DNA from: Nanobdellota archaeon
Lineage (GTDB): Archaea; Nanobdellota; Nanobdellia; Pacearchaeales; GW2011-AR1
Length of the DNA stretch: 57,985 bases
Direction of reading: 5' to 3'
NCBI GenBank assembly: GCA_038044925.1
Contig: JBBSZC010000006.1
Span: 1 to 57,985 of the forward strand
Positions 46,592-57,985 of the stretch are shown here, piece after piece. Within the stretch, counting starts at the first letter, position 1; each line of letters starts with the position of its first letter. The notes under the pieces were generated by a model. It searched no databases. It saw only the letters and a program-made list of their open reading frames with translations, and was not told where the DNA came from. Made by a program: the position numbers and the translations under genes.

Positions 46592-49500
46592 ATGGATAAA
46601 CACTTAATCGTAAAAAAATATCTTGAGGAACATTCTCTTGTAGAATCAAACATAATTTCTTTCAATGAATTTATAGATAAAAAAATTAAGGAGATTGTTG
46701 AAGATCTCTCTGGAAACATGAACTCAGAAGACTTTGAAATAACATTTGGAAAAATTGAAATAGGAAGACCACAAGTTATTGAAGCAGATGGAAGCACTTC
46801 CCTAATAACTCCTGCTGAAGCAAGACTAAGAAATTTAACTTATTCTGCCCCGATTCATCTTGAAATAAGCGTTAGAAAAGGAGAACAGACTGATTCTCAA
46901 ATTGTTGAAATAGGAAAAATTCCTATATTAGTGAAAAGCAAAAACTGCAACACCCATGGAATGTCAAAAGAAGAATTGATAAAAAACTACAATGATCCAT
47001 TGGATACAGGCGGATATTTTATAATTAATGGAAATGAAAGAGTAATGATAATGGTAGAAGATTTGGCTGAAAACCAGGCTTTTATTGAAAATGATTCTAA
47101 AGGAAATTTGATGTTGAGAATGTTCTCGTTAAAAGGAACTTATAGGATTCCTGTTTCAATAACAGAAAATAAAGAAGGACTTTTTGAAATCTCTTTCAGC
47201 AGATTCAAAAATATTCCTGCAATAATTATCCTAAAATCTCTTGGATTAATAAAAGAATCAGAAATATCCAAGCTGATAGGAAAGGAAACAGACAGCGTTA
47301 TTGTAAATCTCTACGAATTTGCAAATATAGCAACTTCTGAAGACGCAATGATGTATATTGCAGAGAAAACTGCATTGCAAGGAACAAAAAAAGAAATTCT
47401 TGATAGAGTTAAACAGAGGATTGATTCATATTTATTCCCCCATATGGGACAGAAAAAAGAGGATAGAATTAAAAAAGCAATAACATTATGCAAACTTATA
47501 AAACAATTTTTAATTGCAAAAGATAATCCTCAATTAAGGACAGATAAAGACCATTATGCGAATAAAAGAGTGAGGCTTTCCGGGGATTTACTTTCAAGTT
47601 TATTCAGGGTTAATTTAAGCATTTTAATGAGAGATGTCCAATATTCTCTTCAGAAAGCATCAAAAAGAAAAAAATTTTTCTCGATAAGAACTATAGCAAA
47701 ATCAACTTTATTCTCACATAGAATTGAATCAGCAATAGCAACAGGAAGCTGGACAGGAGAAAGGTCTGGAATTACACAAAATATGGATAAGACAAATTAT
47801 CTCGCTACAATTTCACAGTTACAAAGAGTTTCTTCTATGCTTCCAGGAGAGCAGGAGAATTTTAAAGCAAGAACCCTTCATCCAACCCACTATGGCAGAT
47901 TCTGCCCAATTGAAACACCAGAAGGAACAGAGATCGGACTTAGAAAAAATCTTGGAATTTTGGCTAAAGTTTCCACAATAGTGGATTTAGATTTAAATAA
48001 ATTTATGAAAATGCTAGAATCAATTGGATTAAATAAAGAAATAAGCGGTACAGAAGTTTTCTTTAATGGAATATTTATCGGAAGTGTGCTTAAACCTAAA
48101 GAATTTGTTGAAGTTATTAAATATAAAAGAAGAAACAATGAACTTCCTATACAAATGAATTTCAGAAACGATGAAACTCTGCAGACAGTTGTTATTTCTA
48201 CTGAACCAGGAAGAGTTTTAAGGCCTTTGATAATTGTAGAAAATGGAATTTCAAAACTTACAAATGAACATTTAGTTGAATTAGAGCAGGGAAATTTGAA
48301 ATGGAATAATCTTGTAGAAAAAGGAATAATTGAATATCTCGATGCTGGTGAGGAAGAAAATTGTTTGGTTTCATTATATAAAGAAGAAGTAACTCCTGAA
48401 CACACTCATCTTGAAATTGATCCTATGGACTTGCTTGGAGTTGTTACAAGCTTAGTTCCTTATGGAAATCACGACCAGAGTTCAAGGCTTAACAGAGGAA
48501 GCAAGACACAAAAGCAGGCTTTAGGTTTGTATGCTGCAAATTATCCCTGCAGATTAGATACAGATGTAAGCATTTTAGAATATCCGCAAAAACCAGTTGT
48601 TAGAAGTTTTGTTTATGATACTTTGAATACATATCCTGCAGGACAAAATCTTGTTGTTGCTATAATGACTTATGAGGGATATAATATGGAAGATGCACTT
48701 GTATTAAATAAAGGAAGTCTTGATAGGGGAGTTGGAAGAAGCTATTATTTCAGGCCTTATTCTGCAGTTGAAATGAATTATGCAGGAGGATTAAAAGACG
48801 AAATATTAATCCCAGACAAAGATACTTCTGGATATAAAATGGAATCTAGTTATAGATTGTTAGAGAATGATGGTATAATTTTCCCTGAAGCAGAAGTTAA
48901 TGAAGGAGATGTATTAATTGGCAAGATTTCTCCGCCAAAATTCTTGTCTGAAGCAAGAGAAATTTCAATCAAAACAAAAAAAGAAGCCAGTGTTTCTATG
49001 AGGCAGGAAGAAAGCGGAGTTATAGACGCTGTTTTTATCACAGAAGATGGAGAAGGAAATAAAATTATTCATGTAAGAACAAGAGATCAGAGAATTCCGG
49101 AATTAGGAGATAAGTTTGCTACTGCTCATGGTCAGAAAGGAGTTATTGGTGCAATTATTCCTGAAGAAGATATTCCTTTTACCGCAAGCGGAATCAAGCC
49201 AGATGTAATTTTCAATCCTCATGGTCTTCCAAGCCGTATGACTGTTGGTTATCTTTTAGAATTAATGGCGGGAAAGGTTGGATGTTTGAAGGGAGAGGTT
49301 ATGGATGGAACTTCATTTTCAGGGGTAAGTAAAAAAGAATTAGAAGAGAAAATGAAAGAATTAGGATTTAGATATGATGGTAAAGAAACAATGTATAATG
49401 GCATTACAGGAAAAAGAATGGAAGCTAAAATATTTGTTGGAAATTTATATTATTTAAAATTAAAATATATGGTAAGAAACAAAATCCATGGAAGAGCTTC

Positions 49501-49840
49501 TGGAAAAGTTGCATTGCTTACAAGACAGCCTGTAGAAGGAAGGTCAAGAGGAGGAGCCTTAAGATTAGGGGAAATGGAGCAACAGGCATTAGTTGCACAT
49601 GGAGCATCATTATTATTAAAAGAAAGATATGATTCTGATAAAGTAACCCTGCATATATGTTCAGAATGCGGAAGCATTGGAATAAATGACACAATAAGAA
49701 ACAGAATTATCTGTCCATTGTGCGGAAGCGAGCATGTCGAGCCAGTGGAAATATCTTATGCTTTCAAATTATTAATAGAAGAATTACAAGGATTGCATAT
49801 ACACACATCATTCAATTTAAAGAATAAATATGATAAGTAA
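46592..49840 (+). CDS. rpoB: RNA polymerase subunit B (unsplit)
   Basis: GYFIINGNERV, HYGRFCPIETPEG, GYNMEDA, GQKGV and GEMEQQA, plus the C-terminal CSECG..CPLCG zinc ribbon. Confidence 0.95.
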   Translation: MDKHLIVKKYLEEHSLVESNIISFNEFIDKKIKEIVEDLSGNMNSEDFEITFGKIEIGRPQVIEADGSTSLITPAEARLRNLTYSAPIHLEISVRKGEQTDSQIVEIGKIPILVKSKNCNTHGMSKEELIKNYNDPLDTGGYFIINGNERVMIMVEDLAENQAFIENDSKGNLMLRMFSLKGTYRIPVSITENKEGLFEISFSRFKNIPAIIILKSLGLIKESEISKLIGKETDSVIVNLYEFANIATSEDAMMYIAEKTALQGTKKEILDRVKQRIDSYLFPHMGQKKEDRIKKAITLCKLIKQFLIAKDNPQLRTDKDHYANKRVRLSGDLLSSLFRVNLSILMRDVQYSLQKASKRKKFFSIRTIAKSTLFSHRIESAIATGSWTGERSGITQNMDKTNYLATISQLQRVSSMLPGEQENFKARTLHPTHYGRFCPIETPEGTEIGLRKNLGILAKVSTIVDLDLNKFMKMLESIGLNKEISGTEVFFNGIFIGSVLKPKEFVEVIKYKRRNNELPIQMNFRNDETLQTVVISTEPGRVLRPLIIVENGISKLTNEHLVELEQGNLKWNNLVEKGIIEYLDAGEEENCLVSLYKEEVTPEHTHLEIDPMDLLGVVTSLVPYGNHDQSSRLNRGSKTQKQALGLYAANYPCRLDTDVSILEYPQKPVVRSFVYDTLNTYPAGQNLVVAIMTYEGYNMEDALVLNKGSLDRGVGRSYYFRPYSAVEMNYAGGLKDEILIPDKDTSGYKMESSYRLLENDGIIFPEAEVNEGDVLIGKISPPKFLSEAREISIKTKKEASVSMRQEESGVIDAVFITEDGEGNKIIHVRTRDQRIPELGDKFATAHGQKGVIGAIIPEEDIPFTASGIKPDVIFNPHGLPSRMTVGYLLELMAGKVGCLKGEVMDGTSFSGVSKKELEEKMKELGFRYDGKETMYNGITGKRMEAKIFVGNLYYLKLKYMVRNKIHGRASGKVALLTRQPVEGRSRGGALRLGEMEQQALVAHGASLLLKERYDSDKVTLHICSECGSIGINDTIRNRIICPLCGSEHVEPVEISYAFKLLIEELQGLHIHTSFNLKNKYDK

Positions 49841-50102
49841 GATGGAAAAAAGAAAATTTGTTAAAAAAAATTTGTTTGAATTAATTGGATTAGCAATATG
49901 TGCATGGAATATTAGTTACTTTGGATATGCAGATTATAAAATAACTAAAAATTTAATTGATAGCGCTTATGTAACTGAAACTATAGTTCCTGAAACACCG
50001 AGATTATCTTCAGATAAAATATATTCAATTCACCCTATTCCTGGGACAGATAGATTAGAAATAAATGTAACTCCTATAAATAAAAATTTAGAAAACAAAT
50101 AA
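49830..50102 (+). CDS. Hypothetical single-TM protein inserted between rpoB and rpoA
   Basis: Overlaps the rpoB stop by 11 nt and ends 3 nt before rpoA. One hydrophobic helix. Confidence 0.45.
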   Translation: MISKMEKRKFVKKNLFELIGLAICAWNISYFGYADYKITKNLIDSAYVTETIVPETPRLSSDKIYSIHPIPGTDRLEINVTPINKNLENK

Positions 50103-50105
50103 AAA

Positions 50106-53100
50106 ATGGTAGAAAAACCAATAAGAAAACAAATTAAGGAAATAAGCTTTGTTTTGCTTAATCCTGAGCAGATTAGAAAATTATCAGTTGCAAAAATTGT
50201 AACTCCTGAGCTCTATGATATCGACGGATATCCTGTTGATGGCGGATTAATGGATCTAAAGCTTGGAGCTATTGATCCTGGAGTAAGATGCAGAACTTGC
50301 GGCGGAAGATTAAAGGAGTGTTTAGGACATCCTGGAGGTATAGATTTAGCAAGAGCTGTAATTCATTTGAAATATGTTCCTATAATAGAAATGGGATTGA
50401 AATGTTTCTGTGTAGAGTGTGGAAAATTATTAATTAAAGATAAAGATATGAATAAATATACTCCTGCTCAAAAAGCAAAAAAGGCAAAAGATGCAAGCAA
50501 GTGCCCGTACTGCGGAGCTGAACACGAAAAAATAAAATTAGACAAACCTACTAACTTCTATGTTGGAAAGAAGAGATTATTTCCTACTGAAATAAGAGAA
50601 ATGCTGGTAAAGGTTCCTGATGAGGAATTGAAAAAAATAGGAATTAATGTAAAAACTTGCAGGCCAGAGTGGGCTGTTTTAACTTCCCTATTAGTTCCTC
50701 CTGTAACAGTAAGGCCAAGCATTATTCTTGAAACAGGTGAAAGAAGTGAAGATGATTTAACGCATAAACTCTCTGATATAATAAGAGCTAATCAAAGACT
50801 TTGGGAAAACTTAAATGCTGGTGCCCCGGAAGTTATTATTGAAGATTTATGGGATTTATTGCAATTTCATATAACAACTTTCTTTGATAACACAGTTTCT
50901 AGAATTCCTCCTGCAAGGCATAGAAGCGGACAGCCATTAAAAACAATCACAGAAAGAATTAAGGGCAAGGAAGGAAGAATAAGAAAAAACCTTGCTGGCA
51001 AGAGAGTAAACTATTCCGGAAGAACAGTGATTTCTCCTGATCCTTATTTGAATATAAATGAAATTGGTGTCCCTATTGAAATTGCAAAAACTGTTACTGT
51101 CAGCGAGACTGCTACTGATTTGAATATAAAAAGATTAAAAAAACTTATAGAATCAGAGGATTATCCTGGAGCTAATTACATAATAAGGCCAGATGGAAAA
51201 AGAAAGAAAATTACTCCTGATTTAAAAGAAGAAATTTTAAATGAGTTAGTTACTGGTTATAAAGTTGAGAGGCATTTACAGGATGGGGATATTGTTTTAT
51301 TTAATAGACACCCGAGCCTTCACAGAGGAAGTTTAATGGCTCATTATGTAAAAGTTCTTCCAGGAAGAACTTTCAGACTGCATCCTGCTGTAGCTTTCCC
51401 ATACAATGCAGACTTTGATGGTGATGAGATGAATATTCACTCTCCTCAAACAGAAGAAGCAAGAGCAGAAGCAAAAATACTTTTAGATGTAAAGAATAAT
51501 TTGATTTCCCCTAAGAATAATACCAACATGATTGGTACTATTTCAGACGCTGTTACTGGAAATTATCTTTTAGGTTTAAGAAAATTGACAAAAGAAGATG
51601 CAGATCAGATTTTATTTGGATCAGGAATAATTCCCTCATTCAGCAAAAAAATAATAGATGGAAAAGAAATAATTTCTGCTGTGCTCCCTAATAAAGTCAA
51701 CTATGGCGATAAATCAAAGAATTGTTTAGGAAAAGACTGCAAACATTATGAAAATTGCAGAAAAACAAAATGTGAAGATAATGCTTATGTCAAAATTGAG
51801 GATGGGGTGTTTATAAGCGGAAATGTGGATAAAAATACTTTCTGTGTTGAAGATGGCTTGTTAATTAAAGTAATGGATAAGCAGGTTGGGAGAGTAGAAA
51901 CAATGCGTACTATAAAAGATATATTTGCTTTAGGGACAAATTATCTTTCTAATATTGGAATCACAATATCGGTTGAAGATTTAGATTTGAATGAAGAAGT
52001 AATAAAACAAGGAGAGGAAATTGTCAAGAAAGCAGAAGAAAAAACAAACGAGCTGATAGAAGCGTGGAGAAATAAAACTCTTGAAATTATTCCAGGAAAA
52101 AACGAGGAAGAATCAAGAGAAATAAAAATCCTTCAGGTTTTGAATGAAGTTAGAACAAAAATAGGTAAGATAGTCAAGCAAGAATTTCCTGACAATAATC
52201 CTGTTAGTTATATGATTAAATCTGGTGGCGGAGGAAATATACTTAATGTAACCCAGATGGCATGTTGTGTTGGACAGCAGGCGATGAATGGAAAAAGAAT
52301 TGATATTGGATATACAGGAAGAACTTTATCATTCTTCAAGAACGGAGATTTATCTCCAAGAGCAAGAGGCTTCATAAATTCTCCTTTTATAAAAGGATTA
52401 AGGCCTGATGAATTTTTCTTTGGAGCAATAACAGGAAGAGATTCATTGATGGATACTGCATTGAGAACTCCAAAATCTGGTTATTTGTATAGGAGATTAG
52501 CAAGTGCATTGCAAGATTTGAGAGTAGAATATGATAAAACAGTAAGAGACGGAAACAACAATATTATACAATTCAAATATGGTGATGATGGTTTGGATGT
52601 AGCAACACAGCATCTTGAAGAAGAAATACAGCCGGGAGAGGCAATAGGAATAGTAACTGCCCAGAGCTTTGGTGAACCGTCAACACAAATGGCTCTTAAT
52701 GTATTCCACTTTGCCGGAGTAGCCGAGATGCAGATAACTACAGGACTTCCAAGACTTATAGAAATATTTGACACAAGGAAAAAACCTTCTTCACCTAAAA
52801 TGGAAATTTATCTTGAAAAAGATTATAATGACGATAAAAACGCCAGAATATTTGCCGAGAAGATAAAAGAAGTCATTTTAAAGGAAATTTCATCTCAAGT
52901 AAGCATAGACTTTAGTGACAAGAAAATTGAAATAAAAATAGATGATAAATCATTAAGGCAGATTCATATGTCTATGAAAAAAGTGGTTGAAAGATTAATT
53001 GACAGTGGATTTAAAGTTAGAGAAAAATCAGATTCAGTTGTTCTTGATGTAAAAGACTCAAACTTCAAAGAAATTTACAGGCTAAAAGAGAAAATAAAAT

Positions 53101-53669
53101 CAACATCCATTTCTGGAGTAAAAGGAGTAAAACAAATTCTAATAGTAAAGAGAGGAAAAGACTTTGTTATACAGACTCTTGGAACAAATCTTAAAGATAT
53201 GCTTAAAATGAAAGAAATTGACAAAGAAAGAATAATTTCCAATGATTTATTTGAAGTTGCTGAAGTATTTGGGATAGAGGCTGGAAGGCAATTAATTATT
53301 AATGAAATAAAAAATGTAATTGAAACTCAAGGACTTGATATTGATATCAAACATTTGAAGTTAGTTGCTGATTCAATGTGCAATAGTGGAGTGATAAGGG
53401 GGGTTACGAGAATGGGGATTATTGCACAAAAATCTTCTATACTTGCAAGAGCAACATTTGAGACTCCTGTAAAACAATTCGTAAATTCAACTGTCAAGGG
53501 AACAAAGGATAAATTAGCAAGTGTAATTGAAAATATTATATTAAATCAGCCTGTCCCTATTGGTACAGGGCTGCCTGGTCTTCTTGTAAAAGTTATCGGC
53601 CCTTTAATTAAAGAAGAGAAAGATAAAAAAATAGCCAGCAAAAAAATAGTTGAGAGAGCAAACAAATAA
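50106..53669 (+). CDS. rpoA: RNA polymerase subunit A, A' and A'' encoded as one polypeptide
   Basis: N-terminal Zn motifs, NADFDGDEMN, and the bridge helix (GRDSLMDTALRTPKSGYLYRRL), followed in frame by the A''-type trigger loop (SFGEPSTQMALNVFHFAG). 1187 aa with no internal stop. Confidence 0.95.
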   Translation: MVEKPIRKQIKEISFVLLNPEQIRKLSVAKIVTPELYDIDGYPVDGGLMDLKLGAIDPGVRCRTCGGRLKECLGHPGGIDLARAVIHLKYVPIIEMGLKCFCVECGKLLIKDKDMNKYTPAQKAKKAKDASKCPYCGAEHEKIKLDKPTNFYVGKKRLFPTEIREMLVKVPDEELKKIGINVKTCRPEWAVLTSLLVPPVTVRPSIILETGERSEDDLTHKLSDIIRANQRLWENLNAGAPEVIIEDLWDLLQFHITTFFDNTVSRIPPARHRSGQPLKTITERIKGKEGRIRKNLAGKRVNYSGRTVISPDPYLNINEIGVPIEIAKTVTVSETATDLNIKRLKKLIESEDYPGANYIIRPDGKRKKITPDLKEEILNELVTGYKVERHLQDGDIVLFNRHPSLHRGSLMAHYVKVLPGRTFRLHPAVAFPYNADFDGDEMNIHSPQTEEARAEAKILLDVKNNLISPKNNTNMIGTISDAVTGNYLLGLRKLTKEDADQILFGSGIIPSFSKKIIDGKEIISAVLPNKVNYGDKSKNCLGKDCKHYENCRKTKCEDNAYVKIEDGVFISGNVDKNTFCVEDGLLIKVMDKQVGRVETMRTIKDIFALGTNYLSNIGITISVEDLDLNEEVIKQGEEIVKKAEEKTNELIEAWRNKTLEIIPGKNEEESREIKILQVLNEVRTKIGKIVKQEFPDNNPVSYMIKSGGGGNILNVTQMACCVGQQAMNGKRIDIGYTGRTLSFFKNGDLSPRARGFINSPFIKGLRPDEFFFGAITGRDSLMDTALRTPKSGYLYRRLASALQDLRVEYDKTVRDGNNNIIQFKYGDDGLDVATQHLEEEIQPGEAIGIVTAQSFGEPSTQMALNVFHFAGVAEMQITTGLPRLIEIFDTRKKPSSPKMEIYLEKDYNDDKNARIFAEKIKEVILKEISSQVSIDFSDKKIEIKIDDKSLRQIHMSMKKVVERLIDSGFKVREKSDSVVLDVKDSNFKEIYRLKEKIKSTSISGVKGVKQILIVKRGKDFVIQTLGTNLKDMLKMKEIDKERIISNDLFEVAEVFGIEAGRQLIINEIKNVIETQGLDIDIKHLKLVADSMCNSGVIRGVTRMGIIAQKSSILARATFETPVKQFVNSTVKGTKDKLASVIENIILNQPVPIGTGLPGLLVKVIGPLIKEEKDKKIASKKIVERANK

Positions 53670-53692: not shown

Positions 53693-54151
53693 ATGGAATG
53701 TAATGTTAGAATTCATCTTTGGCATTCATCAGATAAAAAATTTGGGGGTTATCACTATTATGAATCAGAAAGATTTTGTGATTTTCAGATAGAAATTCCA
53801 AAAGAATTTTATCCTGTAGGAGAAATTAAATCACTAACATTGGGGCCATTTGCTATTCAAGACGTACAAGGAGGAAATAGAAATTTTTCTTTGCCTTTAG
53901 GAAATGTTGAGAGAGTTGAATACCCCTTAAATAAAAATCCTCTCATACATACTAAATTGCTTGGTTCTAGCGTTGTTATGAGTTTGTATCCACTATTTCA
54001 TTGCAGTGGAAGTAAGGAAGATGAAGATAAATTAACTTTTGAAATATATAGAAGGATATTACAAAAAATAAAAAAGTCTAGATTAGTCCCCCATAATAAT
54101 CAATTAGAAATTTCGTTGGGGGATATAAATCCATTATTGACTTTACATTAA
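53693..54151 (+). CDS. Hypothetical protein occupying the slot where rpl30e usually lies
   Basis: 152 aa with no resemblance to L30e/L7Ae motifs. Confidence 0.45.
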   Translation: MECNVRIHLWHSSDKKFGGYHYYESERFCDFQIEIPKEFYPVGEIKSLTLGPFAIQDVQGGNRNFSLPLGNVERVEYPLNKNPLIHTKLLGSSVVMSLYPLFHCSGSKEDEDKLTFEIYRRILQKIKKSRLVPHNNQLEISLGDINPLLTLH

Positions 54152-54202: not shown

Positions 54203-54619
54203 ATGGGGAATACAATTGATATGCAGGATATGAGGTACATAAATCTCTTTGGAAAAATTACTCAGGTGAATACAAGATTCTGCTTCAAATATAATGATAT
54301 GATAATATTTGCTGTTCCGGAAAAATTAATTTCCAAGGCAATTGGACTTGGCGGAAAAAACATAAAAAAAATAAGCGGGACACTAAATAGGAAAATAAAA
54401 GTCATAAAAAGTTTGAATGGGGAAGAGGATGCAAGAAGATTTATTGCAGATATTGTCAGCCCTGTAACTTTTAGGGATTTAGAGATTAGAGAAAATGAAA
54501 TAATAATTGCTGCAGGAAGCCAGAATAAGGCTGCTTTAATAGGAAGAAATAGAAGAAGATTTATTGAACTGCAGAAGATTGTTAAAAATTATTTCAGCAA
54601 AGACTTAAAGATTATTTAG
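54203..54619 (+). CDS. nusA: Archaeal NusA-like termination factor (two KH domains)
   Basis: GLGGKNIKKI and LIGRNRRRF GXXG-type KH loops; operon position. Confidence 0.85.
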   Translation: MGNTIDMQDMRYINLFGKITQVNTRFCFKYNDMIIFAVPEKLISKAIGLGGKNIKKISGTLNRKIKVIKSLNGEEDARRFIADIVSPVTFRDLEIRENEIIIAAGSQNKAALIGRNRRRFIELQKIVKNYFSKDLKII

Positions 54620-54720
54620 GGATAAATTTAAAAACCGAATTTGTTAATTTAACCTATTCATAATTGTTGAATTTAAATTCAAAATAAAACTGCGCCTACG
54701 CGCAGAGTATATTAAATATT

Positions 54721-55215
54721 TTGAATACAACGAAAATCTTTTCAAGATTTTCGAGCTTTCAAATTTCAGGGAAACCGAAGAGGAAATTCAAAGTGGGATT
54801 AAAAAATGCTAAAAAATTTATAAAGAATAGAAAAAAATCTAGATGGAAAGATAGAAAATTCACAGTGAGAACTCTAAATCTTTATGCAAAATCAGACCCA
54901 TTAGAAGGGGCGAATCAAGCAAAGGGGATAGTTCTTCAAAAAGTTCAAAAAGAAGCTAAACAGCCGAACTCAGCGATGAGAAAATGCTGCAAAGTTCAGC
55001 TTACAAAAAATGGAAGATCAATCACTGCATTTATCCCTGGAAATCTCGCTCAAAGATTCATCGATGAGCACGATGAAGTTTTAGTGCAAAGAATTGGAGG
55101 AAAACAGGGAAGAAGCAAGGGAGATATTCCTGGAGTCAGGTATCAAGTTATTAAAGTAAATGATCAGCCATTACACAGGCTTGTTAATGGGCAGATAGAA
55201 AAGGGTAGACGTTGA
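54721..55215 (+). CDS. rps12: Ribosomal protein S12 (uS12)
   Basis: [49 protein letters not shown]. There is no in-frame ATG: TTG 54721, ATT 54763 or GTG 54793 are the candidates, so the start is uncertain. Confidence 0.9.
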
Positions 55216-55268
55216 AAATGAAACATTTTCAGGCATTTAAATTTCAGGATAAATTAAAATAAGATAAA

Positions 55269-55622
55269 ATGACAATAGGATATGAATCTGTTAATTTAGA
55301 AAAAGAATTGGAACTGCTTAGTTGGAATTCTCACGATATTAAAAGAAGCACTGCTTCTGAATCTGCACATCCAAATTTAAGTTTTAGTTTAGATATTTAT
55401 TGTTTGAATGGGACATATAAAGCAAGAGTGAATCTATTAGAGGATTTAGTTGCTTCAAAAAGAATTATTACAAAATTAATTAAAAGAAAAGAAACTCTTT
55501 ATTTTTTTGATAATGGCGGAGTTGTAAGAGCAGATAATGAAACTGAAGTGATATCCTTAACTGCGAATGTCAGACCATCAGATAGAGTTAAACTTGAGAG
55601 CAGTATAACTTTAGGTGTTTAA
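55269..55622 (+). CDS. Hypothetical protein (117 aa), first of three ORFs inserted between rps12 and rps7
   Basis: ORF only; overlaps the next ORF by 8 nt. Confidence 0.45.
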   Translation: MTIGYESVNLEKELELLSWNSHDIKRSTASESAHPNLSFSLDIYCLNGTYKARVNLLEDLVASKRIITKLIKRKETLYFFDNGGVVRADNETEVISLTANVRPSDRVKLESSITLGV

Positions 55623-55938
55623 AATGGATGAACAAATACCATATGTTGAAGTAACTGAGACAAGATCATTAAAAACTAATAGAATCATACGTACAAAGAA
55701 AATCACTGCCAAAACTAAAGAATCATTTGAAGAAGTTAAAGATTACCTTAGAACAATTTCAAGAGATTGCACAGAAGAAAAAGAGAAAGGTTTTACTTAT
55801 TATATAATTAACCAACAAAAAAATTGTGTTGGAATTGCTAAGGATAATGATTTAAGTTTATTATTAACAGATAGTCTTGATCAAGAAACAATTGATGTTT
55901 TAGAAGAATATGCAGGAGGAAAATTAGAAGAGAGATAA
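55615..55938 (+). CDS. Hypothetical protein (107 aa), second inserted ORF
   Basis: ORF only; 4-nt gap to the next ORF. Confidence 0.45.
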   Translation: MFKMDEQIPYVEVTETRSLKTNRIIRTKKITAKTKESFEEVKDYLRTISRDCTEEKEKGFTYYIINQQKNCVGIAKDNDLSLLLTDSLDQETIDVLEEYAGGKLEER

Positions 55939-55942
55939 TAAA

Positions 55943-56200
55943 ATGGCAACAAAAAATTACAAAGTTGATACAGAAACATATTCAGATATTATAAGATATC
56001 TGATGAATAAATATGGTGGAGAAATAAAACAAAAAGAAGAGGGGAATATATTAATATGTCAAACACCTCAAGGAAATATGAAAGCAAATGTGCCATTAAT
56101 TAGAAAAGAGGGAAGATGCATCGAGATGGTGTTTGATGATTTAGATAAGGAACTTTTTTTAGAATTAAATGAAAGATTTAGATTAGAAGATACAAAATAA
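55943..56200 (+). CDS. Hypothetical protein (85 aa), third inserted ORF
   Basis: ORF only; ends 2 nt before rps7. Confidence 0.45.
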   Translation: MATKNYKVDTETYSDIIRYLMNKYGGEIKQKEEGNILICQTPQGNMKANVPLIRKEGRCIEMVFDDLDKELFLELNERFRLEDTK

Positions 56201-56202
56201 AA

Positions 56203-56811
56203 ATGGAAGAACAAAAAATTAAATTCAAGATTTTTGATTTATATGATTTAAGCGAAATTAAAGTAGCTGACGATGGGTTGCAACCTATGATTAATTTAGA
56301 TCAAAGGTTAATTCTCAAAAGCCATGGAAGAAACATGCAAAAGATGGGAAAAGCCAAAATAAATATTGTTGAGAGATTAATGAATAAAATTGGTGTTGCT
56401 GGACATAGAGGGAAAAAGCACAAGATTGAAATGGGAAGTTCGACAGGAAAATATACTACCAATATGAAACTAGTTTTAGATGCTTTAGAAATAGTTGCAA
56501 AAAAAACAGGAAAAAATCCTGTTGAAGTTTTGGTCAAGGCAATAGAGAATGCTGCTCCTAGAGATGAAATTACAGTTATAGAATATGGTGGAGCTCGTTA
56601 CCCGCAGGCAGTTGATGTTTCACCTATGAGAAGAGTTAATCTTTCTTTGAAATTTTTAATTCATGGAGCCGGAGACAAATCTTTTGGAAAAAAGAAACCA
56701 TTTGCGCAGGCATTGGCCGAAGAAATAATTATGACTTATGAGAGAAATGGAGAAAGTTTTGCCTTGAAAAAAAAGAATGAATCAGAGAAGCAAGCTGATA
56801 GTGCGAGATAA
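56203..56811 (+). CDS. rps7: Ribosomal protein S7 (uS7)
   Basis: Length, position and conserved VIEYGGARYPQAVDVSPMRR and KKKNESEKQADSAR-type segments. Confidence 0.9.
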   Translation: MEEQKIKFKIFDLYDLSEIKVADDGLQPMINLDQRLILKSHGRNMQKMGKAKINIVERLMNKIGVAGHRGKKHKIEMGSSTGKYTTNMKLVLDALEIVAKKTGKNPVEVLVKAIENAAPRDEITVIEYGGARYPQAVDVSPMRRVNLSLKFLIHGAGDKSFGKKKPFAQALAEEIIMTYERNGESFALKKKNESEKQADSAR

Positions 56812-56820
56812 AAATTAATC

Positions 56821-57471
56821 TCACCCAACATTAAATACTGTATGTTCTTTTATATGGGACCTTACATCTATTGTTGTTTTAAGGATAACTAAAAACATTA
56901 TAATTGCTGATGGGGCTTTAAAAAAACCAATTAAAAATGCACCAAATATTATCGTGAAATGCATTACAACTATTCTTGAATAAGGTTGTGTAAATAATTG
57001 ATTTATAGAAATTTTATCGTATTCTCTATTCTTTAAAAAATTATTATAATATGAAAATCCATGGCTTATAAACAAGGAAATAATTCCAATAGAAACTGAA
57101 AATATTATATCTGAGATATTTAAAGCTAATTTATCTTGAAAAAGAGAACTTATAGCAAAAATAAAAATAAGATGGCCAAACATGAAACCCCCAAAATGAA
57201 TTATAAAAAATATTTTAAAATAATGGGTTAAATTTGTTGTAGGGTTAAAATTAAGATATGCATTGGCTTTGGAATTTTCATTTATAGATTTATTAGTTTT
57301 TATCATTTTTAGTATATTATAAAACCCGATTATAGCACTTTCAATCCAGTATAAAATTAAAATCATAAAAATATTCCAATTAAAAAATAAAACTCCCATC
57401 AATGGGATTGAATTCGCAATAATTAATACTGTTATTGAATATTTAAGTGATGGTATTGTATTTTTTTGCAT
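56821..57471 (-). CDS. Hypothetical polytopic membrane protein
   Basis: Six hydrophobic helices; family not assigned. Confidence 0.5.
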   Translation of the reverse strand: MQKNTIPSLKYSITVLIIANSIPLMGVLFFNWNIFMILILYWIESAIIGFYNILKMIKTNKSINENSKANAYLNFNPTTNLTHYFKIFFIIHFGGFMFGHLIFIFAISSLFQDKLALNISDIIFSVSIGIISLFISHGFSYYNNFLKNREYDKISINQLFTQPYSRIVVMHFTIIFGAFLIGFFKAPSAIIMFLVILKTTIDVRSHIKEHTVFNVG

Positions 57472-57856
57472 AGAGGTAATAATTTAAGGAAGTTTTTAAT
57501 CTTTTCTAGAGTGTTAAGTAAACTCTGAATCTTAACATAAAAAATTATCTTAAAATATACTGCTCCTTCGTCGCAAATCGATAAAATCAAGATAATAAAA
57601 GAAACATCCTTGATAATTATAATTAAAAGTGGTTTTTTTGATTATCAATCTAAGAAATATCACGAGTGAAAACGAGTGCAAAATGTTAAGTTATAGACTG
57701 GACTTAACATAGAGAAAACATTTAAAAAGCAAATTTTACAATAAATTTTATTCTATTATAGTCAAGGACATTAATTTTTACCAATTTCGTCGTTGACTAT
57801 TTAGGGAAAGACATAAATCTTTCAATATAGTTTATAAATAGAGACTATTTATTATA

Positions 57857-57985
57857 TAAAATGGCGGTAAACAAAATCAAAGATTTTGAACTTCCATTTT
57901 ATATAAAGGAATGTAAACAATAAAATGGCAGTAAACAAAATCAAAGATTTTGAACTTCCATTTTATATAAAGGAATGTAAACAAT
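57857..57985 (+). repeat. 64-nt tandem direct repeat (at least 2 units, truncated by the window end)
   Basis: Units at 57857-57920 and 57921-57984 differ at one position (ggcGgt vs ggcAgt). Each unit contains the nested inverted repeats aaaatgg..ccatttt and aaaatc-aaa-gatttt. Confidence 0.85.

Follow-up and report, generated by a model that had tools for sequence, protein, structure and literature searches.

Three seemingly orphan genes between rps12 and rps7 of a Nanobdellota archaeon are probably local representatives of fast-evolving genes resident at this junction

In this study, we analysed a 57,985-nucleotide stretch of DNA from a Nanobdellota archaeon (the window), in which three small open reading frames, ORF1, ORF2 and ORF3, separate the genes of ribosomal proteins S12 and S7. 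In our judgement they are probably local representatives of lineage-specific, fast-evolving small genes found at the rps12|rps7 junction of most Woesearchaeota/Pacearchaeota-type Nanoarchaeota. Few gene adjacencies of cellular life are as conserved as the S12–S7 pair. In most members of this large DPANN lineage it is broken, by genes which standard searches call orphans.

Both flanking genes were identified by Pfam: rps12 (uS12; positions 54793–55215, plus strand) matches PF00164 with E=1.9e-39, and rps7 (uS7; 56203–56811, plus strand; 202 aa) matches PF00177 with E=3.9e-34. S12 read from GTG 54793 has 140 aa, as it has in public assemblies as well; the mechanically delimited ORF runs further upstream, to TTG 54721. 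The 987 nt from S12 to S7 consist of a 53-nt spacer followed by three packed co-directional ORFs on the plus strand, ORF1 (55269–55622, 117 aa), ORF2 (55624–55938, 104 aa) and ORF3 (55943–56200, 85 aa), which confirms the three genes of the initial annotation. The lengths given there for ORF1 and ORF3 hold. In case of ORF2, 107 aa from GTG 55615 and an 8-nt overlap with ORF1 had been proposed; the start at ATG 55624 is preferred by gene callers and has AGGTG 9 nt upstream, and with it the ORF1/ORF2 junction becomes TAA-A-ATG, with a 1-nt gap. The statement that the ORFs fill the space almost exactly is correct as regards their tight packing, but not at the S12 side, where the non-coding spacer intervenes. 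Their location inside the S12–S7 unit stands, and the stop-start junctions TAA(A)AATG, at which each ORF has its own start, would permit the suggested translational coupling. ORF1, ORF2 and ORF3 lie in three different reading frames.

ORF1–3 are genuine protein-coding genes. Their three longest open stretches sum up to 316 codons, compared to a mean of 126 and a maximum of 225 in 5000 dinucleotide-preserving shuffles, and the longest open stretch on the minus strand of the region does not exceed 47 codons. Read in frame, ORF1, ORF2 and ORF3 have codon log-likelihoods of 0.36, 0.43 and 0.48, respectively, with all their other frames at 0.18 or less; for confident genes of the window the value is 0.39 +/- 0.09. 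The comparison of codon usage and GC, which had been recommended as a check, found all three native in both. The same DNA is present at 100% in five independent Hainich H43 groundwater assemblies, with one SNP, located outside the ORFs.

The earlier remark that no motif could be assigned to these proteins was borne out, as no known family was recognized in Pfam, NCBIfam, PHROGs, PADLOC or PDB. A word-indexed search of ORF1–3 against 5.8 billion protein clusters gave self-matches only. When the concatenated ORFs were compared by full HMMER search with 1.84 billion representatives, the output consisted of the ORFs themselves and one other match, P0004, a 583-aa repeat protein (E=8e-6). It was set aside because its best stretch crosses the artificial ORF2/ORF3 joint and the similarity comes down to a short helical motif, QE(A/T)(V/I)D(I/V)LE.YA.G.L. 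No Pfam family matched ORF1 or ORF3, and the best one for ORF2, Epsilon-antitoxin (E=0.047), is far below the gathering score; NCBIfam, PHROGs and PADLOC contained nothing significant for any of the three, the best PADLOC match, PDC-S18 (E=0.009), being far below threshold. Of 67 gap ORFs of relatives, only two had a Pfam match at E<=0.01, to Ocnus in one case and to NitrOD5 in the other. The profile of gap family A, described below, found RNase R as its best PDB sequence, with E of 0.054. Neither a ribosomal family nor a PDB ribosome chain was matched by Pfam, the family A profile or Foldseek, and Rfam recognized no family in the region. Our literature searches brought up no description of archaeal genes between rps12 and rps7.

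The same junction was surveyed in 145 related Woese-/Pacearchaeota-type loci (DPANN). The gap is 40 nt or shorter (empty) in 40 of them and at least 150 nt long in 93, within a range of 1 to 816 nt. Filled gaps nearly always hold one to three small ORFs (45–150 aa), which are co-directional and tightly coupled; where the gap measures 120 nt or more, plus-strand ORFs cover more than 80% of it in 79% of cases, a coverage which the minus strand reaches in 5%. An ATG lies within 3 nt of the S12 stop, or overlaps it, in 125 of 132 non-redundant relatives, be it rps7 or a gap ORF that comes next. Gap ORFs begin where rps7 otherwise would, typically as TAAAATG directly on the S12 stop codon. The initial annotation had named uninterrupted relatives lacking any homologues of the ORFs, together with absent expression, as evidence against its proposal; instead, the synteny comparison it called for revealed one to three ORFs at the junction in about two thirds of relatives, and remote homologues among them. 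Occupied and empty states are interspersed on the S12+S7 tree. Since 28% of relatives have no gap gene at all, the function must be dispensable. The window and all relatives examined agree in the order RpoA, NusA-KH, S12, S7, EF-2. The other junctions of this cluster are also variable in the lineage, hence the S12–S7 site is not uniquely special.

A local collection of 5389 ORFs, 2.8% of which are S12–S7 gap ORFs, served for the homology searches, and positional confinement was assessed within 4–6 kb of rps7. In this set, the best non-self matches of ORF1, ORF2 and ORF3 are all S12–S7 gap ORFs of other genomes, namely L019/L136 for ORF1 (E=0.014), and L157 (E=0.0013) and L162a (E=0.013) for ORF2. 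An iterated profile converged at 20 members, all of them gap ORFs, as are all of its top 28 matches; the seed alignment of family A (alignment A2) was chosen by eye. Against a profile built from relatives only, ORF3 is the top non-training match among the 5389 ORFs, with E=3e-5 after ten relatives were realigned from scratch and E=1e-7 to 3e-8 when alignment rows were removed; one alternative realignment gave E=0.089, and ORF2 was then outside the top ten. These scores place ORF3 in family A. ORF2 obtained E=0.082 with independent realignment, and 3.6e-3 and 1.2e-6 with rows removed, which more weakly suggests that it belongs to the gap family as a divergent member, the profile E (1.2e-6 to 0.082) being alignment-dependent. 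ORF1, composed of a ~45-aa N-terminal extension and a domain weakly similar to the L019/L136 and L071 gap proteins, scores E=39 against the family A profile directly. Its tie to the family appears to be transitive only and to run through L071, which is found at E=0.0069 by the ORF1+L019 profile and at 3.2e-8 by the family A profile made without it. With this bridging sequence left out, hhalign aligned the ORF1 family with family A in the expected register, at 8% probability and P=0.004. In locus L162, an ORF2-like gene precedes an ORF3-like one, matching the order of the window. The proposal that the genes are lineage-specific is supported.

No single seed expanded in jackhmmer (E<=1e-3), and BLASTP among ORF1, ORF2 and ORF3 gave no significant match. 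The 122 gap ORFs fall into ~75 sequence clusters, which hhalign fails to unite; most are not linkable to family A, so the gap content may have more than one origin. Random-set controls of the profile test were uninformative, as the sets held sequences with true orthologues in the database. The family alignment has no stretch conserved enough to serve in a scan for further loci, and a scan with a three-member subfamily detected only the already known L009. An ORF drawn in by an early iteration (L034:12231-12500) proved to be a MazE/AbrB protein and was discarded as a false positive. The ~115-aa proteins encoded in S7–EF2 gaps have no significant similarity to family A, and their winged-helix matches are weak and sub-threshold.

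According to the initial annotation none of the three ORFs resembles the others. This is contradicted by ORF2 and ORF3, which both score against one profile of relatives' gap proteins and share a 59-nt direct repeat. Copy 1 of the repeat (55898–55956, plus strand) comprises the 3' end of ORF2 and the start of ORF3, and copy 2 (56157–56215, plus strand) the 3' end of ORF3 and the start of rps7. The copies are identical at 42 of 59 positions, a value reached in none of 100 shuffles (maximum 40), and their spacing of 259 nt equals one ORF3 unit. The repeat is best read as the DNA trace of an ORF2/ORF3 tandem duplication.

Selection on gap genes is purifying but relaxed, and their divergence far outpaces that of S12 and S7. 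In genome pairs with 78–98% identical S12/S7, gap ORFs are 27–77% identical; in L048 and L072, the gap ORF has 36% identity and S12 and S7 97% each. Measured on pairs of relatives' gap ORFs (the nearest metagenome relative of the window has 77% S7 identity), dN/dS is 0.10–0.69 vs 0.01–0.20 for S12/S7, and below 1 in every pair tested. It is probably because of this very fast evolution that the ORFs of the window appear as orphans. Their products have pI of 6.1, 4.9 and 5.2 (ORF1–3, respectively) and the family A median is 5.3, compared with 9.7–10.7 for S7 and S12, the net charge of which is +11 and +22, respectively. The only conserved positions in gap proteins are core hydrophobic residues, Gly and Tyr.

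For ORF3, single-sequence AlphaFold2 (mean pLDDT 79.5, pTM 0.68) predicts a compact beta-alpha-beta4-alpha fold; in a model of the concatenated ORFs, the ORF1 and ORF2 parts were of low confidence. With the ORF3 model as query, Foldseek found no significant match in PDB or BFVD. Among the best matches were two-layer alpha/beta domains, the KA1 domains 4yom_A and 2zfd_B (TM 0.51–0.56) and domain 4 of PMM/PGM (C-terminal, TBP-like), to be compared with the predicted beta-alpha-beta-beta-beta-beta-alpha order of ORF3. As these and the other matches remain at E>=0.077 and TM<=0.56, no function can be transferred.

Roughly 29 nt ahead of the ATG of ORF1, the spacer between S12 and ORF1 (55216–55268, plus strand) contains a TATA-like GCATTTAAAT. 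The spacer is nearly identical in two loci with ~74–77% protein identity to the window over S12+S7 (distance 0.23–0.26), L066 and L073; it is followed directly by rps7 in the former and by a 71-aa gap ORF in the latter. A paralogous copy of its motif, the promoter-like ATTTTCGAGCTTTCAAATTTCAGGGAAA, is located upstream of rps12 (54741–54774, plus strand), and the two form direct repeat D1, with 74% identity over 34 nt. Two exact matches of AAATTTCAGGRWAA occur in the 58-kb window, both 17–19 nt before a start codon. Probably, the spacer acts as an internal promoter or leader. A sigma-70 promoter and terminator scan was uninformative, the host being an archaeon.

Putting these observations together, we propose that an ancestral gap gene has been vertically inherited, its departure from an essential operon being difficult, and that it may have undergone tandem duplication, precise loss and divergence past pairwise recognition, the last of which would make the ORFs of the window seem orphans. 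In this genome, the conserved TATA-like spacer would drive joint transcription of ORF1–3 and rps7, and translation would proceed by termination-reinitiation at each TAA(A)AATG junction. The gene products would be soluble, acidic, non-catalytic alpha/beta proteins, made beside the very basic S12 and S7. As a speculation, their most likely role is that of a dispensable binding partner of S12/S7 or of the small subunit, i.e. an escort, an assembly helper or a protective factor.

The variability of the locus may also be read in another way, which we regard as unlikely: the junction could be a nursery where any insert is transcribed and re-initiated (TAAAATG), so that unrelated young or de novo ORFs turn over, the weak similarities reflecting shared composition or convergence on simple alpha/beta folds and not common descent. 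Such turnover agrees with the ~75 clusters among 122 gap ORFs, most of them unlinkable by hhalign, with gap lengths from 1 to 816 nt and empty and occupied states interspersed on the tree, with a conserved spacer which precedes no ORF (L066), one (L073) or three (the window), and with the variability of the remaining operon junctions. It does not agree with ORFs of a length improbable by chance at 30% GC, with dN/dS below 1 in all pairs tested, or with profile matches that are exclusive to the gap while small proteins of the same composition from those genomes are not matched; ORF3 moreover has a confident, well-packed fold, and the gene order is conserved in L162. Rather unlikely, too, is a bolder version, in which the junction is a dedicated expression slot with a strong promoter and automatic TAAAATG re-initiation, where small proteins are born, duplicated and replaced fast. 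They would form a hypervariable, highly expressed acidic set modulating or protecting the decoding centre (S12, S7, EF-2) in symbiotic archaea, e.g. against ribosome-targeting toxins of hosts or competitors.

Considering their position within the S12–S7 unit, the coupling junctions and the occupancy of about two thirds of relatives, the gap proteins might be new lineage-specific ribosomal proteins or stoichiometric small-subunit components near S12 and S7, encoded in the operon for balanced synthesis. We find this improbable for acidic proteins, ribosomal proteins having pI near 10, and for ones which, unlike core ribosomal proteins, evolve very fast, vary in copy number from none to three and are missing in 28% of relatives; neither a ribosomal family nor a PDB ribosome chain was matched. 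The initial annotation had considered a selfish or conflict cassette (toxin-antitoxin, defence/anti-defence, mobile element) sheltering in an essential operon, and in its favour one may quote that immunity and anti-defence genes typically encode small acidic proteins which evolve fast, together with the weak PDC-S18 (E=0.009) and Epsilon-antitoxin (E=0.047) matches, both far below thresholds. The region has, however, no integrase and no flanking inverted or direct repeats of the insertion type, its codon usage and GC are native, and no toxin-antitoxin, defence or phage family is significantly matched; within the DNA examined detectable relatives occur only at the same junction, with no further copies in the 58-kb window and no structural match among viral proteins, all of which makes such a cassette very improbable. 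Finally, spurious ORFs, decayed-gene fragments or an assembly artefact, to which the lack of database homologues in standard searches and the three different frames, as expected of frameshifted fragments, might point, are hardly credible and already largely refuted by the strong coding statistics, the agreement of five independent assemblies, the own start of each ORF at TAA(A)AATG, the confident fold of ORF3 alone, the remote homologues at the same position in other genomes and the failure of the 306-aa concatenated query to retrieve any longer homologue.

If resident genes are the correct explanation, one class of DPANN "dark matter" would consist of fast-evolving genes which keep their position, and not of foreign insertions. 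Synteny-anchored local profile searches can rescue homology missed in billions of sequences. Family A is absent from the curated libraries searched, and should be abundantly expressed in ultra-small archaea; it offers a concrete target for proteomics and interaction work on S12, S7 and small-subunit biology.

The canonical archaeal str/rpo cluster, as in Methanococcus and Sulfolobus, has the order rpoA, rpl30e, nusA, rps12, rps7, fusA/EF-2, tuf. The window and its relatives keep the order of RpoA, NusA-KH, S12, S7 and EF-2; the window differs by its three extra ORFs between S12 and S7, a 152-aa orphan at the usual position of L30e and a minus-strand DUF6498 gene between S7 and EF-2. In E. coli, the rpsL-rpsG intercistronic region, through which S7 represses translation of its own mRNA, is a spacer without ORFs. 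The window likewise has a conserved non-coding element (55216–55268) directly upstream of the S7 unit, which could be regulatory; unlike the E. coli region, it looks like a TATA promoter of archaea and recurs as a paralogous copy ahead of rps12, and no Rfam family matches it. Eukaryotes possess conserved dedicated chaperones of ribosomal proteins, such as Yar1 (uS3), Tsr2 (eS26) and Acl4 (uL4). The gap proteins differ from them in being fast-evolving and often lost, and in having no sequence or fold similarity to them, but like these chaperones they would be small acidic proteins produced with very basic ribosomal proteins, and the comparison may serve as a working analogy for their function.

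An archaeal transcription/translation cluster occupies the plus strand of the window, in which the genes of RpoB (46592-49840) and RpoA (50106-53669) have a 90-aa ORF (49830-50102) between them. RpoA is a single 1187-aa ORF containing Rpb1 domains 1-5; in most archaea RNA polymerase subunit A is encoded by split A'/A'' genes. Between RpoA and the KH-domain protein NusA (54203-54619), where archaea usually carry L30e, lies an orphan 152-aa ORF (53693-54151, plus strand), with no Pfam or NCBIfam match and no relative in the 160 loci fetched. In relatives the median RpoA-NusA gap is just 80 nt, thus L30e is absent from that position in the lineage. S12 (54793-55215; PF00164, E=1.9e-39), the small genes ORF1 (55269-55622), ORF2 (55624-55938) and ORF3 (55943-56200), and S7 (56203-56811; PF00177, E=3.9e-34) follow on the same strand, and a minus-strand DUF6498 membrane-protein gene (56821-57471; PF20108, E=9e-51) stands between rps7 and the EF-2 gene, which comes next. 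In one relative (L082) the DUF6498 gene is also found on the opposite strand of the rps7-EF-2 interval. From 57856 to 57985, the end of the window, runs a direct tandem repeat of ~64-nt period (98.5% identity in BLAST self-matches).

Each of the three ORFs is a real gene. Added together, the three longest open stretches of the 987-nt S12-S7 gap come to 316 codons, against a mean of 126 and a maximum of 225 for the same sum in 5000 dinucleotide-preserving shuffles, and on the minus strand open stretches never exceed 47 codons. Codon-usage log-likelihoods trained on 26 confident window genes (0.39 ± 0.09 for these genes) were 0.36, 0.43 and 0.48 for the annotated frames of ORF1, ORF2 and ORF3, and at most 0.18 for all their other frames. 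The comparison of codon usage and GC proposed in the initial annotation gave GC1 > GC2 > GC3, as in the genome's genes, and a native overall GC of 27-30%. Five independent assemblies of Hainich H43 groundwater samples contain the same DNA. At each of the three internal junctions the sequence reads TAA(A)AATG. The initially annotated coordinates were right, with two refinements: for ORF2, described as 107 aa long, ATG 55624 (104 aa) is preferred on public gene calls and AGGTG 9 nt upstream, and S12 and ORF1 are kept apart by a 53-nt non-coding spacer. The ORF2 start (55621-55636, AAAATGGATGAACAAA, MDEQ) matches the rps7 start (56200-56215, AAAATGGAAGAACAAA, MEEQ) at 15 of 16 nt, which could be a duplication-boundary trace or a shared initiation context, and alone is not significant.

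S7-anchored retrieval provided 80 loci each from GTDB species representatives and from metagenomes, all of Woesearchaeota/Pacearchaeota/Nanoarchaeota type (S7 identity 66-77%), 145 of them with both S12 and S7. For the synteny check proposed in the initial annotation, 40 of the 145 loci have an S12-S7 gap of ≤40 nt, 12 have one of 40-150 nt and 93 one of ≥150 nt, reaching 816 nt, so that the window's is the longest seen. Co-directional ORFs fill more than 80% of the length in 79% of the 96 gaps that measure at least 120 nt (opposite strand, 5%); one ORF of at least 44 aa is present in 58 gaps, two in 26 and three in four. An ATG overlaps the S12 stop or follows it within 3 nt in 125 of 132 non-redundant loci, regardless of whether S7 or a gap ORF comes next, most commonly as TAAAATG (68/132). 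Empty and occupied junctions are intermingled on a crude S12+S7 tree. The feature is more than a one-off: small genes occupy the S12|S7 junction lineage-wide, for which we found no description in the literature searched.

Neighbouring junctions are also variable, with gaps above 150 nt in 32% (RpoA-NusA), 49% (NusA-S12), 64% (S12-S7) and 73% (S7-EF2, the most variable; median 424 nt, maximum 3.7 kb), thus the whole cluster is permissive in this lineage. A ~115-aa protein recurs in the S7-EF2 gap (L023:6946-7296, L045:7453-7797, L039:6984-7328, L033:6938-7279, L150:5423-5773), giving weak, sub-threshold winged-helix matches (DUF7342, Penicillinase_R, RuvB_C); it is not significantly similar to the family of the S12-S7 gap. 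A ~106-aa family is found inside the S12-S7 gap in L080 (5426-5746) and directly after rps7 in four other genomes (L026:6845-7165, L073:6674-7000, L061:6648-6980, L006:6932-7249), so some small genes do move between operon junctions.

The S12-ORF1 spacer (55216-55268, ATTTTCAGGCATTTAAATTTCAGGATAAATTAAAATAAGATAAA, then ATG) recurs almost unchanged directly 5' of rps7 in L066 and 5' of a 71-aa gap ORF in L073, two loci whose S12+S7 proteins are clearly diverged from those of the window (distance 0.23-0.26). It has a TATA-like box ~29 nt before the ATG. A motif resembling the spacer lies 19 nt 5' of the start of rps12, and within the 58-kb window AAATTTCAGGRWAA has exact matches in these two places only. 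We infer from sequence a putative internal archaeal promoter or leader; if so, the rps7 transcription unit would begin with ORF1-3. The AT-rich NusA-S12 spacer carries a GC-rich perfect hairpin (54690-54705, CTGCGC-CTAC-GCGCAG), and L020 has CTGTGC-CTAC-GCACAG at the equivalent place upstream of rps12. This compensatory double change suggests a conserved RNA or DNA stem, e.g. a terminator or processing site.

ORF1-3 gave no significant match in Pfam, NCBIfam, PHROGs or PADLOC, and each matched only itself among 5.8 billion protein clusters. Exhaustive HMMER with the concatenated ORFs against 1.84 billion representatives returned self-matches and one metagenomic repeat protein (P0004, 583 aa, units of ~70 aa), rejected as a homologue since its best match crosses the artificial joint of the query. 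It contains LSQEAVDILERYATGELKD, which resembles LDQETIDVLEEYAGGKLEE, the C-terminal helix of ORF2; the likeness is probably due to chance or to a short helical motif common to both.

Among 5389 ORFs compiled locally from the window and every locus in six frames, of which S12-S7 gap ORFs make up 2.8%, the best non-self matches were gap ORFs, every one: L019/L136 for ORF1 (E=0.014), L157 (0.0013) and L162a (0.013) for ORF2, and L152, L058a and L162b for ORF3. In L162 an ORF2-like gene precedes an ORF3-like one, as in the window. A profile seeded with an alignment of visually similar gap proteins and iterated at E≤1e-3 converged on 20 members, all in the S12-S7 gap (family A), and the 28 best matches to the final profile are gap ORFs without exception. 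With a realigned profile of ten relatives only, ORF3 was the top new match (3e-5) and ORF2 the fourth (0.082); row-removed alignments gave 1e-7 to 3e-8 and 3.6e-3 to 1.2e-6, respectively, and L071, when left out, scored 3.2e-8. Single-sequence jackhmmer did not grow at all and one alternative realignment was weaker (ORF3 at 0.089), which places family A at the limit of detection, its definition hanging on a hand-picked seed. ORF1 is linked to it only transitively: an ORF1+L019 profile finds L071 at 0.0069, and hhalign of the ORF1 family against family A without L071 gave 8% probability (P=0.004) in the expected register. A DNA repeat with copies one ORF3 unit apart independently supports the paralogy of ORF2 and ORF3: 55898-55956 (ORF2 end and ORF3 start) and 56157-56215 (ORF3 end and S7 start) agree at 42 of 59 positions, a count that no shuffle out of 100 equalled (maximum 40).

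When the same two genomes are compared, gap ORFs have diverged far more quickly than the genes flanking them: 36% identity between L048 and L072 (S12 and S7 97% each), 60% between L037 and L039 (98% and 92%), and 77% and 37% for the two gap ORFs of L009 and L101 (96% and 83%). In relatives' pairs, gap ORFs have a Nei-Gojobori dN/dS of 0.10-0.69, and S12 and S7 one of 0.01-0.20, so the gap genes are constrained, loosely. The nearest sequenced relative has an S7 identity of only 77%, a distance at which homologues of the window's gap genes should retain about 20% identity or less. ORF1-3 look like orphans because of this fast divergence; gap genes evolve too fast for standard homology searches. 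Resident genes, vertically inherited, fixed at the S12|S7 junction, evolving fast and tandemly duplicated here, fit the evidence best, the positional part applying within 4-6 kb of rps7. Most other gap ORFs (~75 sequence clusters among 122) could not be joined to family A, and for these many ORFs a de novo nursery at the junction is possible, which as an explanation fares less well than resident genes.

The products are acidic (pI 6.1, 4.9 and 5.2 for ORF1, ORF2 and ORF3; family A median 5.3, 83% of members acidic), S12 and S7 having pI of 10.7 and 9.7, and none is markedly hydrophobic (GRAVY -0.22 to -0.80). That they are core ribosomal proteins, as their place between rps12 and rps7 might suggest, is at odds with this charge, with how fast they evolve and with how often they are lost. 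Conservation in the family A alignment is limited to a first helix rich in Tyr and Leu, a Gly turn, hydrophobic positions in the strands and an acidic helix at the C terminus that ends in LEE, with no catalytic-looking conserved residues. AlphaFold2 on ORF3 alone (mean pLDDT 79.5, pTM 0.68) predicts a beta-alpha-beta-beta-beta-beta-alpha topology, and the low-confidence ORF2 model has the same alpha-beta3-alpha core. The selfish cassette considered in the initial annotation, sheltering in an essential operon, lacks every expected hallmark and fares less well than resident genes. The gap-gene products might be dispensable acidic binding partners of S12, S7 or the small subunit, a working hypothesis of low confidence. 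Foldseek with the ORF3 model returned no significant match among viral structures or in the PDB (best E=0.077), where the likeness to KA1 and PMM/PGM domain 4 (TM≤0.56) was not significant. The family is new, and adds another form to a well-known pattern in which conserved operons harbour accessory genes specific to a lineage.
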